From NCBI GenBank assembly GCA_040217755.1, contig JBEHWJ010000002.1:3113-67112 (forward strand): 64,000 nt of DNA, read 5' to 3'. This document shows, piece after piece, positions 57,415-62,020 of this stretch. The translations under genes were made by a program, and so were the position numbers. Origin of the DNA: Syntrophomonadaceae bacterium. Lineage in GTDB: Bacteria; Bacillota; Syntrophomonadia; Syntrophomonadales; Syntrophomonadaceae. The notes below the pieces were generated by a model that saw only the letters and a list, made by a program, of their open reading frames with translations, was not told where the DNA came from and made no database searches. The first letter of the stretch is position 1. Every line of letters starts with the position of its first letter.

Positions 57415-57470
57415 AAAATACTGGACAAAAATGATAAATTGTGATTTAGTATAAGAACAATCTCTTGAAT

Positions 57471-57550
57471 AAAGGCAAACTCGTTGAAAGACGAAGACGC
57501 AAAGCCACGGGTCTAAGGACAGCAATGTCTATGACAGCCGGGTTGCCTGG
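57471..57550 (+). promoter_or_regulatory. c-di-GMP-I (GEMM-I) riboswitch aptamer, plus arm, copy 1
   Basis: GGCAAAC...UGAAAG...GACGCAAAGCCACGGGUCUAAGG...AGCCGGGUUGCC matches the GEMM-I core as I remember it from Vc2. Confidence 0.85.
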
Positions 57551-57571
57551 AGCAGATATAGTATTATCCGA

Positions 57572-57605
57572 CCTGCCAGCAACTCGCTGAGCAGGTTTTG
57601 TTTTT
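57572..57605 (+). terminator. Intrinsic terminator (expression platform of copy 1)
   Basis: CCTGCCAGC-aactc-GCTGAGCAGG followed by TTTTGTTTTT. Confidence 0.75.
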
Positions 57606-57649
57606 AATTGAATAATTCAGGACGGCGGGGCCAAGAGCCCCTCACCGAT

Positions 57650-57730
57650 AATAGCAAACCTGTCGAAAGGCGGGGACGCAAAGCCACGGGTCTAAGGACG
57701 ATTGGTCTACGATAGCCGGGTTGCCGAAGG
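57650..57730 (+). promoter_or_regulatory. c-di-GMP-I (GEMM-I) riboswitch aptamer, plus arm, copy 2
   Basis: AGCAAACCUGUCGAAAGGCGGGGACGCAAAGCCACGGGUCUAAGGACG...AGCCGGGUUGCCGAAGG. A T-run lies at 57746-57751, but I could not resolve a clean terminator stem. Confidence 0.88.
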
Positions 57731-57791: not shown

Positions 57792-58781
57792 ATGTTGGCC
57801 GGCAGGAAACGCCTAGGATTATACATCGCGCTCATAGTTACCTTGATTCTTACCCAAACGCCTATGGTCGCGGCAGAAAGCAACCATCCCAGTTTAACGC
57901 CGGATCACCATTCTGGTCTAGCGAACAGCGACTATTACATTCTCCAAAACAATGTGGTAATCGAGAATTCAGGTTCGGAACCAGCCACCAGGGTGAGGTT
58001 GGAGGTGCCCTTGATGGCAGACCTGGATTCACCTTACCAGGATGTGGTGAAAGAAGAGTTTTCGCCCCAACCTACCGAGATAAGAAAAATGGGCGACGGC
58101 ACCCGTACCGGGGTATTCAGTTTCGAAGACATCGCTCCCGGTACATGTACTGTTCTGACACAAAAATATACGGTCAGGTTAGACGGGAGCAACTGGCTTA
58201 ATAATGGCGGCGGCGAGATTCTGATTGACCCCCGGGCATATTTAGGACCGGCTGCCAAAATAGAATGCGCCGACCCCCGCATCCAGGCTGTGGCGCTACG
58301 CATCAATCCCAATGGCGACATCGATGATCTTGGTGTGGCCCAGAAAGCCTTTGAATTCACCCGCAGCACGCTGACTTACAACTCGTATTCTCCATCTGCC
58401 AACCAGGGAGCATTGGCGGGTTTGCAGGCCGGGAGCGGATGTTGTGAAGAATACGCATCATTGTTCGTGGCCGTGTGCCGGGCTTCAGGAATTCCAGCCC
58501 GGATAGTGAACGGGTATGCCAATGACCGAGACGAGTTGGCCGAGGATGAGACGCTGATAAATATGACTGGCCGCCGGCATCAGTGGGCCGAATTCTACCT
58601 GGATGGTAAGGGATGGATCCCCGTTGATCCCACCCTATCCATTGATATGCGCCCGGTATTCGGGCAACTCCCGACCGGATGTTATGTGGCAGAGAACTAT
58701 GGTGACCGGCAGGTCACTGGTAAATACCGCGGCGGTAAACTGGCGATTCAGTTCCAGGACCAAGTAGCCCGAGGATATTAA
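57792..58781 (+). CDS. Secreted transglutaminase-like (papain-fold Cys-His-Asp) enzyme
   Basis: Signal peptide MLAGRKRLGLYIALIVTLILTQTPMVAAES. Core motifs are GCCEEYASLFVAVCRASGIPARIVNGY, HQWAEFY and WIPVDPT. Confidence 0.88.
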   Translation: MLAGRKRLGLYIALIVTLILTQTPMVAAESNHPSLTPDHHSGLANSDYYILQNNVVIENSGSEPATRVRLEVPLMADLDSPYQDVVKEEFSPQPTEIRKMGDGTRTGVFSFEDIAPGTCTVLTQKYTVRLDGSNWLNNGGGEILIDPRAYLGPAAKIECADPRIQAVALRINPNGDIDDLGVAQKAFEFTRSTLTYNSYSPSANQGALAGLQAGSGCCEEYASLFVAVCRASGIPARIVNGYANDRDELAEDETLINMTGRRHQWAEFYLDGKGWIPVDPTLSIDMRPVFGQLPTGCYVAENYGDRQVTGKYRGGKLAIQFQDQVARGY

Positions 58782-58819: not shown

Positions 58820-59572
58820 ATGAAGAGAAGAATCCTGGTCACGTCCATTGTCGTATTCCTGACTGCGATAACCCTCATCAATGTCGAGCCGGCAGGGATT
58901 ACGGCAGAAGAAAAGGCGATTACCGCCATGCAGGATGTCATTACATCGCCGGAACCGCAGCCGGCAGCAAATCAATCGACAGCTTTTGATGCTGCCGCCG
59001 CTCCCCAGGCCGAGGCCAAAGCACCCGACCAAACTGTACCGACTCGGCCAGTCGCTGCAACAGATATCGAGTCGAAGATATCTCCGGAAGGTAACATCCA
59101 AACCGAAGCAACCACCAGTCCACCCAAATCCAGCCCCAGTAAAGAAACCAAACAACCGCCGACGGTTCAGCCGCCTGCCACCGCAACCACCTCAGCCACT
59201 GCCCAGCAGAAGGAAATGTTGGGATACATCAATGCCGCGCGGGCCCAGGCCAACCTTGCCCCCCTGGTCCTGGACAGCAAGCTTTGCAACGGAGCCTATT
59301 TAAAATCCCAGGACATGGCCGTGAACGGGTATTTCAGTCATACTTCCCCTACATACGGCACTCCCTTTGAAATGATGAGAAGTATTGGCATTACCTATCG
59401 GACAGCCGGGGAGAATATTGCCAGGAACCATAGCGTTTTGGCAGCATATAATGCTTTCATGAATTCCAGTGGTCATCGGGCCAACATCCTTAACCCGGCA
59501 TTCAACAAAATAGGGTTAGGGTTCTATCAGCGGGGCAGCGATCTGTTTGTAACCCAATGGTTCACCAATTAA
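58820..59572 (+). CDS. Secreted CAP/SCP/PR-1 domain protein (YkwD-like) with Pro/Thr/Ala/Gln-rich linker
   Basis: Signal peptide, a low-complexity linker, then CAP motifs GYFSHTSP, GENIA and SSGHRANILNP. Confidence 0.85.
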   Translation: MKRRILVTSIVVFLTAITLINVEPAGITAEEKAITAMQDVITSPEPQPAANQSTAFDAAAAPQAEAKAPDQTVPTRPVAATDIESKISPEGNIQTEATTSPPKSSPSKETKQPPTVQPPATATTSATAQQKEMLGYINAARAQANLAPLVLDSKLCNGAYLKSQDMAVNGYFSHTSPTYGTPFEMMRSIGITYRTAGENIARNHSVLAAYNAFMNSSGHRANILNPAFNKIGLGFYQRGSDLFVTQWFTN

Positions 59573-59703: not shown

Positions 59704-60324
59704 TCACTCAGTTTGGCGGGCCCGCACAATCAGTCTCTGCGTCACATTGCCAGGGGGGTCGCAAGTGGTTAAGGTCAGGGCCCGGTAATTAGTGGGTGCT
59801 ACCACCGACCAATCGTTCTCCGCCACGATGTAAACCTTTTCTACTGAGTACTCATAGTCTCTGCCCTGGTAGGATATGCTTATCCTGTCCCCGGGTTCCA
59901 ACCGGTTAAGATACCGGAACCAGGAACCAAATACATTGCGGTGACCAGCAATGGCGACGTTGCCTTTATCACCGGGCAAGGCGCTGTCAGGATATAAGCC
60001 GGGCCCCATACTAAGATCCCGGGAGGTAACTCCTTGAACTACTGCAGTTTTTAGATTTAATTTGGGGATGCTTAAAACCATTACCGCCTTTATAGTTGGC
60101 TTGGATTGTGCGGCAGGAGTCGGGCCAGGGGTTATCGCATTTGATGCCGTCGGTAAGCCTGCAACCCCAGTTCCGCTCGTCTCTTCAGGGGTTTGAGGAT
60201 ACGCCTGTTCAACGGCTTCCAACAGTTGACGCTGCATATATATGCTATATCCATTCTTAATAAGGGGGCTCAGGATCAACAATAATCCCCCTATAATCAT
60301 CACCCAACTGAAAACCCGGCGCAC
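59704..60324 (-). CDS. Sortase family transpeptidase (membrane-anchored)
   Basis: Catalytic His (IAGHRN), TLxTC motif (LTLTTCDP) and Arg (RLIVRA). The start is adjusted to the GTG at 60324, 5 nt after AAAGGGGUGA, giving MRRVFSW followed by a TM segment. The frame is open from 60357. Confidence 0.87.
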   Translation of the reverse strand: MRRVFSWVMIIGGLLLILSPLIKNGYSIYMQRQLLEAVEQAYPQTPEETSGTGVAGLPTASNAITPGPTPAAQSKPTIKAVMVLSIPKLNLKTAVVQGVTSRDLSMGPGLYPDSALPGDKGNVAIAGHRNVFGSWFRYLNRLEPGDRISISYQGRDYEYSVEKVYIVAENDWSVVAPTNYRALTLTTCDPPGNVTQRLIVRARQTE

Positions 60325-60348
60325 CCGGTCACCCCTTTTCTTATAGAA

Positions 60349-60374
60349 AGAGACCACCCTGGAGGGTGGTCTCT
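60349..60374 (-). promoter_or_regulatory. Intercistronic perfect hairpin between the poly-Asp gene and the sortase
   Basis: RNA reads AGAGACCACCCU-CC-AGGGUGGUCUCU followed by UUCUAUAAG: 12 complementary nt on each side. Confidence 0.55.
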
Positions 60375-60410: not shown

Positions 60411-61502
<1,092 letters not shown>

Positions 61503-61595: not shown

Positions 61596-61631
61596 TAAAA
61601 AAACCTGATGGGGTATATACCCCAGCAGGTC
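61596..61631 (-). terminator. Intrinsic terminator (expression platform of the proximal minus-arm riboswitch)
   Basis: RNA reads ACCUGCUGGGG-UAUAUA-CCCCAUCAGGU followed by UUUUUUU. Confidence 0.8.
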
Positions 61632-61644
61632 GATAAATCCTCTA

Positions 61645-61727
61645 TTTCGGCAACCAGGCTGTCATAGACTAATCGTCCTTAGACCCTTGGCTTTGCGTCC
61701 CCGCCTTTCGGCGGGTTTGCCTTTGTC
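61645..61727 (-). promoter_or_regulatory. c-di-GMP-I (GEMM-I) riboswitch aptamer, minus arm, proximal copy
   Basis: RNA reads GGCAAACCCGCCGAAAGGCGGGGACGCAAAGCCAAGGGUCUAAGGACG...AGCCUGGUUGCCGAAAU. Confidence 0.88.
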
Positions 61728-61837
61728 GGTGAGGGCTTACAGCCCTGCATCAGAATAAGGAACTAAATGTAAACAGTCTACCTTATACATATATATACGA
61801 ACTCGGAAACAGATAACCGTGGCAAAAATGTTATTAA

Positions 61838-61866
61838 AAAAAAATACTTAGCCGAATGCTAAGCAG
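61838..61866 (-). terminator. Intrinsic terminator (expression platform of the distal minus-arm riboswitch)
   Basis: RNA reads UGCUUAGC-AUUCG-GCUAAGUA followed by UUUUUUUUU. Confidence 0.65.
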
Positions 61867-61881
61867 GTGTTTCTGTCTGCT

Positions 61882-61960
61882 CTCTGCAACCCGGCGGTCA
61901 TGACCTTGCGGCGTTAGACCCGTAGCTTTGCGTCCCCGCTTTTCAACGGTTTTGCCCTTA
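61882..61960 (-). promoter_or_regulatory. c-di-GMP-I (GEMM-I) riboswitch aptamer, minus arm, distal copy
   Basis: RNA reads GGGCAAAACCGUUGAAAAGCGGGGACGCAAAGCUACGGGUCUAACG...CCGCCGGGUUGCAGAG. Confidence 0.82.
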
Positions 61961-61991
61961 AGAGAAAATCGATTGCAATTATCTTATGCTT

Positions 61992-62020
61992 ATTCTATGC
62001 AATTTATCTTGGGATTACAA
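61992..62020 (-). promoter_or_regulatory. Candidate sigma-A promoter of the riboswitch / poly-Asp / sortase transcript
   Basis: Minus strand reads TTGTAA (62015-62020), 17 nt, TAGAAT (61992-61997), about 30 nt upstream of the distal aptamer. Confidence 0.55.

Follow-up and report, generated by a model that had tools for sequence, protein, structure and literature searches.

Two types of c-di-GMP-I riboswitch in series, of predicted opposite polarity, in the leader of a surface-protein and sortase operon of a Syntrophomonadaceae bacterium

Results

The riboswitch leader and its operon

We analysed a stretch of 64,000 nucleotides from a Syntrophomonadaceae bacterium (assembly GCA_040217755.1, contig JBEHWJ010000002.1, positions 3,113 to 67,112 of the forward strand; hereafter the window, whose own numbering is used throughout), in which two riboswitch units of the cyclic di-guanosine monophosphate (c-di-GMP) class I stand in series before a minus-strand operon. 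The leader comprises, in the direction of transcription, a promoter, a first aptamer (unit 1) and its terminator (T1), and a second aptamer (unit 2) and its terminator (T2), and is followed by genes for a poly-aspartate surface protein and a sortase:

61992..62020, minus strand: promoter, with the -35 hexamer TTGTAA (62020-62015), a 17-nt spacer and the -10 hexamer TAGAAT (61997-61992), from a pattern scan
61882..61966, minus strand: upstream (distal) aptamer, unit 1, RF01051, 72.0 bits, E 3.6e-12, model positions 1-87
61836..61865, minus strand: terminator T1, stem UGCUUAGC/GCUAAGUA (61865-61845) and U9 tail (61844-61836), -9.3 kcal/mol, z -4.0
61645..61730, minus strand: downstream (proximal) aptamer, unit 2, full-length clan match, 78.8 bits, E 4.7e-17
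61597..61631, minus strand: terminator T2, stem GACCUG-C-UGGGGU/ACCCCA-U-CAGGUU (61631-61602) and U7 tail (61603-61597), -18.8 kcal/mol, z -4.7
60411..61502, minus strand: gene 1, secreted LPQTG-anchored protein of 363 aa, with ATG at 61502 and the Shine-Dalgarno (SD) sequence AAGGAGG at 61517-61511
59704..60357, minus strand: gene 2, class D/E-like sortase (Pfam Sortase, 3e-32)

A preliminary description of the locus, made by eye, had proposed that two full c-di-GMP-I riboswitches follow one another here, both having a terminator of their own, and the covariance-model scan and the terminator scores bore this out; its promoter was found, its start codon, SD sequence and downstream operon were correct, and its coordinates were right to within a few bases.

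The whole window was scanned with cmscan against Rfam at gathering thresholds (35 bits for RF01051), which returned four aptamers of the c-di-GMP-I clan, two on the minus and two on the plus strand. Both minus-strand units combine a score above the threshold with the ligand-contacting bases G20, A47 and C92 that mark c-di-GMP-I (GEMM-I, RF01051), located at g61956, a61929 and c61886 in unit 1 and at g61721, a61694 and c61650 in unit 2. In unit 1, helix P1 pairs UUUUCU (61968-61963) with AGAGAG (61885-61880). The label given to unit 2 by the scan was that of the 'GGC variant' RF03167, an assignment that was ruled out: the variant needs G at the defining position 47 (GACGCGAA), where unit 2 has A (GACGCAAAG, a61694), and the alignment to RF03167 mismatches at precisely this column. 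RF03167 models P1 as well, and the label reflects this advantage in the competition within the clan. Near-identical orthologues of unit 2 score 81-90 bits with RF01051, and unit 2 is, judged from its sequence, a canonical G20/A47/C92 aptamer. In aptamers of type 1 a GNRA tetraloop in P2 docks to a receptor in P3. Unit 2 has a GAAA tetraloop and the canonical CUAAG/UAUG receptor; unit 1 has the same tetraloop, and a C·C pair in its CUAAC/CAUG receptor. At the tetraloop receptor of the upstream units the pair is non-canonical, either C·C or C·U, which might, speculatively, mean a lower ligand affinity. Each aptamer is followed, within about 50 nt, by a G+C-containing hairpin directly before a U tract, the layout of a complete transcriptional riboswitch. 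We consider both units almost certain to be genuine c-di-GMP-I transcriptional switches, with predicted selectivity for c-di-GMP.

For comparison, leaders were gathered by a DNA pattern scan of metagenomes, from contigs reached through sortase and transglutaminase homologues, and by Rfam scans of the loci obtained (designated L001 and so forth). The promoter is a 9-of-12 pattern match, of which the region contains ten against 9.8 expected, that is, the chance frequency; both hexamers are nevertheless kept in position in the alignment of three orthologous leaders, L001, L017 (TACAAT) and L007. A transcription start near 61985 was inferred, and a scan between the two units found no second promoter. 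T1, which contains three G-C pairs, is kept with substitutions in L001 and L017. The mismatched C61625 in the stem of T2 is part of the predicted antiterminator described below, and this C mismatch is kept in L001 units B and C and in the third unit of L017.

Gene 1 encodes 145 uninterrupted aspartates (about 61016-60582) and 170 in all, and its orthologue in L001 is 66% identical. The sortase is 100% identical to a National Center for Biotechnology Information (NCBI) entry named 'class E sortase [Syntrophomonadaceae bacterium]', and a second protein of the locus likewise has a fully identical NCBI entry from a Syntrophomonadaceae metagenome-assembled genome. A mini-open reading frame of five codons (MANNQ*) lies between T2 and the true start of gene 1, its AUG preceded by AAGGUGGUG, a strong SD-like sequence (61572-61544, minus strand); the AAGGUGGUG motif is found in the corresponding position of L001 and L017, but the mini-reading frames differ.

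Distribution of the two unit types

The N-terminal domain of the surface protein is rare, with a single genome locus (L001, an uncultured Syntrophomonas metagenome-assembled genome with the same synteny) and one protein match among 5.8 billion. Only five lineages of the acidic operon were recovered, because most contigs bearing the sortase break inside the acidic repeat. The orthologous operon of acidic LPXTG-type protein and sortase is preceded by two switches in the window and in L007, and by three in L001, L017-L020 and L011. A convergent operon with a transglutaminase and a CAP gene likewise has two switches (three in L011), while distant transglutaminase homologues (L033, L036, L037 and L038) have a single switch, in all cases of the downstream type.

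The cores of units 1 and 2 share 77% identity. By comparison, the core of unit 1 is 96% and 88% identical to those of the upstream units of L017 and L001, and the core of unit 2 is 96%, 93% and 91% identical to those of downstream units in the L017 and L001 loci. The acidic LPXTG operon, in each of its five lineages (window, L001, L017-L020, L007 and L011), and at least eight transglutaminase operons have the distal type first and the proximal type last. Where there are three switches, it is the downstream type that has been duplicated (L001 B/C, L017-2/-3) or, once, the upstream type (in L011). Comparison of the cores and of their order thus showed the two units to be an old heterotypic pair and not a duplication.

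Three further loci were noted in the interval between a metallophosphoesterase gene and the sortase gene (L021, L022 and L024), where the surface-protein gene and all its riboswitches have been lost and the sortase kept; L021 and L022 are also without the transglutaminase gene, yet its two switches remain before the CAP gene. An extreme acidic, low-complexity stalk is present in all the riboswitch-controlled LPXTG-type proteins (L007 2156-2983; L011 8765-7689, minus strand; L001 4001-4849; L017-L020), with a lineage-specific composition: besides the consecutive aspartates of the window, it consists of (TD)n, of (DDDSDS)n, or of a short poly-D with (NGNGHD)n. Its length varies across samples with an identical sortase (381-431 aa), and assemblies often break inside it.

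Expression platform of the upstream unit

T1 begins about 20 nt past the aptamer of unit 1, without overlap, and the two are bridged by a predicted alternative helix:

61851..61895, minus strand: predicted antiterminator of unit 1, 15 bp, using the P3 3' strand, C92 and the P1 3' strand of the aptamer

Its 5' side is formed by GCCGGGU (61895-61889), GC (61887-61886) and GAGCAG (61882-77), and its 3' side by CUGCUU (61866-61), GC (61859-58) and AUUCGGC (61857-51). The minimum free energy (MFE) structure of the 63-nt segment 61900-61838 was this antiterminator (-18.6 kcal/mol) and not T1 (-9.3 kcal/mol); the full-length MFE structure was also without T1, which appeared only when the aptamer, including P1, was enforced. 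In units of the distal type, the inner half of the terminator 5' arm and the first bases of the terminator loop (CNNGGCAAC) can pair with the 3' strand of the aptamer (GGUUGCC plus that of P1). The homologous antiterminator in 12 transglutaminase-type units had 89.5% of its cells paired, as against 26-65% in slid registers, and exchanges between G-C and A-U compensated each other at two positions (GAG/CUC in L015, AAG/CUU in L011, for example). The terminator-loop bases complementary to the aptamer, AA(C/U), are conserved while the remainder of the loop varies, and L017 retains the pairing of unit 1 with other loop bases (ACCCG with CGGGU).

Unit 1 has the layout of Cd1, the c-di-GMP-I OFF switch of the flgB leader in Clostridioides difficile, whose terminator is compatible with the folded aptamer and whose antiterminator is made from an aptamer strand (PMC9262584). 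By this layout unit 1 is predicted to be a Cd1-type OFF switch. In the unbound state, the P3 3' strand, C92 and the P1 3' strand would engage the 5' arm of T1 together with its loop and allow read-through; with ligand, P1 and P3 would retain those bases, T1 would form and transcription would stop. A pairing of the early leader with T1 (GCAUAAG, close to the transcription start, with CUUAGC), by which unit 1 could instead act as an ON switch, was rejected, as it is not conserved in L001 and L017 and the test of the flanks was negative.

Some of the statistics weigh against an OFF assignment of unit 1. The energy of the antiterminator duplex relative to shuffled sequences was modest (window z -1.2, 66/500; mean z -1.3 over the distal units), its covariation relative to column shuffles was not significant (59/500), and the MFE test for an upstream partner of the terminator 5' arm discriminated weakly, since the nascent 3' tail paired upstream in 62 of 300 shuffles; this last test was given no weight for unit 1. 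Such figures would leave room for both units having the same polarity (ON/ON) and acting pseudo-cooperatively as a steeper, digital activator, like the Bc3-5 triplet in the cspABCDE leader of Bacillus thuringiensis CT-43, whose near-identical ON units precede cell-wall-anchored proteins (Zhou et al. 2016, PMC4759541). Like polarity has this published precedent and is generally assumed for c-di-GMP-I tandems (PMC4759541, PMC9481103, PMC12452182), and the cargo of the window, a cell-wall-anchored surface protein, is typical of ON control. What speaks against it at unit 1 is the position of T1 beyond the aptamer with no upstream strand to sequester it in the bound state, an outer helix of the ON type (5' flank with 3' flank and terminator arm) having been sought in 13 distal units with a negative result (mean z +0.34). 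T1 also forms with the aptamer enforced, and the two units are not the near-identical repeats of Bc3-5. We therefore regard a like-polarity tandem as unlikely.

Expression platform of the downstream unit

Around unit 2, two elements that would compete with one another were identified, a hairpin immediately 5' of the aptamer (H0) and an outer helix that prolongs P1 (P0):

61732..61748, minus strand: 5' competitor hairpin H0, AGGGC-UGUAA-GCCCU (61746-61732), with GCAGG (61748-61744) overlapping its 5' arm, -8.4 kcal/mol
61625..61642, minus strand: 3' strands of the outer helix P0, GAGG (61642-61639) and CCUGC (61629-61625), from folding and duplex scores

H0 stands directly 5' of P1 in nearly all the proximal-type units examined, the distant single switches included, with energies of -8 to -11 kcal/mol, and is preserved in transglutaminase-type units by a change from A-U to G-C with an inserted C. 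The extension of P1 pairs GAGG (61642-61639) with CCUC (61734-61731), which is overlapped by the 3' arm of H0, and the predicted antiterminator pairs CCUGC (61629-61625), where the 5' arm of T2 begins, with GCAGG (61748-61744). Covariation in the P1 extension takes four forms, CCUC/GAGG, CCUG/CAGG (L038, twice), CCCG/CGGG (L033) and CUUC/GAAG (L011), and H0 overlaps its 5' strand in every one of them. These pairs were read from duplex calls on each sequence, as the MAFFT column alignment including the distant single switches was gapless and out of register.

The pre-terminator MFE structure of unit 2 kept the aptamer intact and enclosed it in a nested P0 (GCAGG/CCUGC and CCUC/GAGG, with some pairs between them), at -49.6 kcal/mol against -48.8 kcal/mol for the state with H0. 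The flank-to-flank duplex of the window (-18.6 kcal/mol, z -2.5) was equalled by 7 of 500 shuffles, and the flank duplexes of seven of eight proximal units outperformed theirs (z -2.2 to -3.9). Six of eight units also pair their upstream flank with the 5' arm of the terminator, and in the transglutaminase-type units and at position 4070 of L038 this arm overlaps the 3' strand of the P1 extension, the classical ON design. With P0 continuous with P1 and pairing GCAGG with CCUGC of T2, unit 2 is predicted to be an ON switch. In the proposed mechanism, H0 would hold both CCUC and GCAGG in the absence of ligand, and T2 would form; ligand would stabilise P1, whose extension (CCUC/GAGG) would open H0 and release GCAGG, and the latter could then capture CCUGC, the beginning of the 5' arm of T2, block T2 and permit read-through.

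A different ligand-dependent choice had been proposed for this unit, in which GCCUGGU, taken for the P1 3' strand, would mimic ACCUGCU at the start of the terminator 5' arm. This was rejected. GCCUGGU is the P3 3' strand and not P1; its U covaries with an A of the P3 5' strand (CCAAGGG versus CCACGGG), and in the orthologous L001 units B and C the sequence is GCCGGGU, which could not form the supposed pairing to the 3' arm of the terminator.

Several results count against an ON assignment of unit 2. The upstream pairing is absent from two of eight units, T2 is favoured in the full-length fold (-63.9 kcal/mol), and with the P1 extension enforced the T2 state is still slightly ahead of the antiterminator state (-59.7 versus -58.0 kcal/mol). 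Because T2 is thermodynamically favoured, ON behaviour in the window would have to be kinetic, with an outer helix of just 5 bp as the trap. The dominance of T2 in all modelled states also favours a third possibility, namely that a single unit regulates while the other is decaying or constitutive, either T1 being leaky and irrelevant or T2 always terminating. The weakness of T1 (-9.3 kcal/mol, three G-C pairs) fits this, as does the example of Bc1, a conserved c-di-GMP switch that is functionally silent (PMC11218506). On the other hand, both aptamers score far over the threshold and keep all ligand-contacting bases, and both unit types are conserved with their platform elements, in a fixed order, in at least five lineages, which makes a single regulating unit very unlikely in our judgement.

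Combined output of the two units

The layout of a like-polarity tandem of the Bc3-5 type was not found computationally: the flank helix had a mean z of -2.6 in proximal units against +0.34 in distal units, and the partners of the terminator arms differ. Whether the pair is in fact wired in opposite polarity, OFF and then ON, we judge to be an even question on this evidence. The preliminary description had expected a steeper, more digital response, which presumes like polarity and is probably wrong, given two different platforms that predict opposite polarity.

With an OFF unit followed by an ON unit, full-length mRNA would need unit 1 to be empty and unit 2 to be occupied. Since both aptamers of the window carry the c-di-GMP signature, the output would be a band-pass response to one ligand, provided that both polarities hold and that unit 2 is the more sensitive. 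This leads to a tentative model, which we think possible though improbable as a whole: a natural single-ligand RNA band-pass, made of an OFF and an ON c-di-GMP-I switch in series, would allow transcription of the operon only at intermediate c-di-GMP concentrations, the same cassette would stand before two operon families of the Syntrophomonadaceae, and exchanges between G20 and A20 may turn it into a two-input gate for c-di-GMP and cyclic GMP-AMP (cGAMP). Three considerations weigh against this model. Adhesin-type cargo is usually plainly ON at high c-di-GMP. For there to be expression, OFF and ON units that follow one another and sense a single ligand would need different thresholds. Moreover, predicted c-di-GMP switches may behave unexpectedly, as exemplified by Bc1 (PMC11218506).

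The last part of the model rests on the base at position 20, where A confers cGAMP or bispecific binding (PMC6140456, PMC9481103). A20 occurs in the upstream unit of the acidic operon in four of the five lineages (L001, L017, L007 and L011); in the transglutaminase operon it is the downstream unit that carries A20 (window, L002/L017, L021 and L024). Units with the change from G20 to A20 were located at L001 3342-3426, L017 2039-2123, L007 1446-1530, L011 9375-9460 and L015 2891-2976. Such frequent, position-specific A20 suggests mixed sensing of c-di-GMP and cGAMP in the clade, and relatives with A20 in unit 1 may operate as a NOT-X AND c-di-GMP gate. A corresponding reading for the pair itself is that the upstream OFF-type unit has a far higher threshold, or responds mainly to a signal that is broader or of another kind (both dinucleotides, or 3'3'-cGAMP), so that the operon would be expressed with c-di-GMP present and the other signal absent. 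The orthologous A20 units and the C·C or C·U receptor pair of upstream units, which might reduce affinity, would agree with it; unit 1 of the window, however, carries G20, A47 and C92, the signature for c-di-GMP, and no cGAMP synthase was found, although no search aimed at one was made; we find a two-input gate at this locus rather improbable.

Other RNA elements of the window

The two aptamers on the plus strand also form a tandem:

57464-57550 and 57643-57728, plus strand: tandem c-di-GMP-I pair, cmscan 85.6 and 83.7 bits

They head the convergent operon of a transglutaminase-core gene and a CAP/YkwD gene (57792-58781 and 58820-59572), again with the distal type before the proximal type. The proximal unit has A at the position of G20 (a57653), a cGAMP or bispecific signature, and its platform consists of a weak GAAGGAGG/CCUGCCUU hairpin with a U6 tail within a GGACGGC/GCCGUCC outer helix.

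Elsewhere in the window, a T-box leader (3541-3254, minus strand, 111.7 bits) with the specifier region GAA-CUC (Leu) precedes the leucine-tRNA ligase gene leuS (3206-726, minus strand). Inside this leader, on the same strand, lies a complete tRNA-Ala(GGC) gene (3383-3308, minus strand) with G3:U70 and an encoded CCA. It is embedded between Stem III and the antiterminator/terminator of the T-box, an odd position for a non-cognate tRNA.

Discussion

The tandem architecture described here is in itself of an ordinary and well-known kind. Among riboswitch classes, c-di-GMP-I has the most tandems, with 347 doublets and 12 triplets, which have been read as pseudo-cooperative and 'more digital' (Sherlock et al. 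2022, PMC9481103), and COG1305 transglutaminase-like genes of the Bacillota are specifically enriched for c-di-GMP-I doublets (PMC12452182). The precedent in B. thuringiensis invoked in the preliminary description is real (PMC4759541), although its view of such tandems as uncommon does not stand beside these numbers (PMC9481103). The plus-strand pair (57464-57728), before a transglutaminase-core gene, is like the tandems catalogued in these surveys, and the minus-strand pair consists of the same two unit types. The surveys, unlike the present analysis, treat tandems as being of like polarity and pseudo-cooperative, without examining the polarity of each platform (PMC9481103, PMC12452182).

In common with Bc3-5, the minus-strand leader has complete c-di-GMP-I units in series, with their own intrinsic terminators, before a surface-protein operon, and relatives of the window also have triplets. 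It departs from Bc3-5, in which every one of the near-identical units is ON and the C92/P1/P3 strand of the aptamer itself serves as terminator 5' arm, in the 77% identity of its units, in their two platform designs and in the opposite polarity predicted for them. With Cd1, unit 1 shares the compatibility of aptamer and terminator and an antiterminator formed by the aptamer 3' strand with the terminator 5' arm; whereas Cd1 is a single switch before flagellar genes, unit 1 precedes a second switch and an adhesin-like gene, and its polarity is a prediction only. We found no natural ON/OFF tandem for the same ligand in the literature searched. As described where it is cited in PMC10265488, a synthetic tandem of thiamine pyrophosphate (TPP) ON and OFF switches gave a band-pass response (Muranaka & Yokobayashi 2010), and resembles our prediction in placing ON and OFF switches for one ligand in series, with output at intermediate ligand only. 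By the same account it differs from the pair in the window in being engineered, translational and TPP-sensing.

Should the polarity prediction fail, the locus would be an ordinary tandem c-di-GMP-I leader before an adhesin-like operon. If it is true, the catalogued doublets, now uniformly read as sharpeners of a response, would need a unit-by-unit check of polarity, and in a conserved subset of them the function computed would be a window of concentrations or a NOT/AND, of which only synthetic versions have been built so far. Such a pair would provide these bacteria with a simple RNA-level mechanism for outputs that are specific to intermediate concentrations of c-di-GMP.

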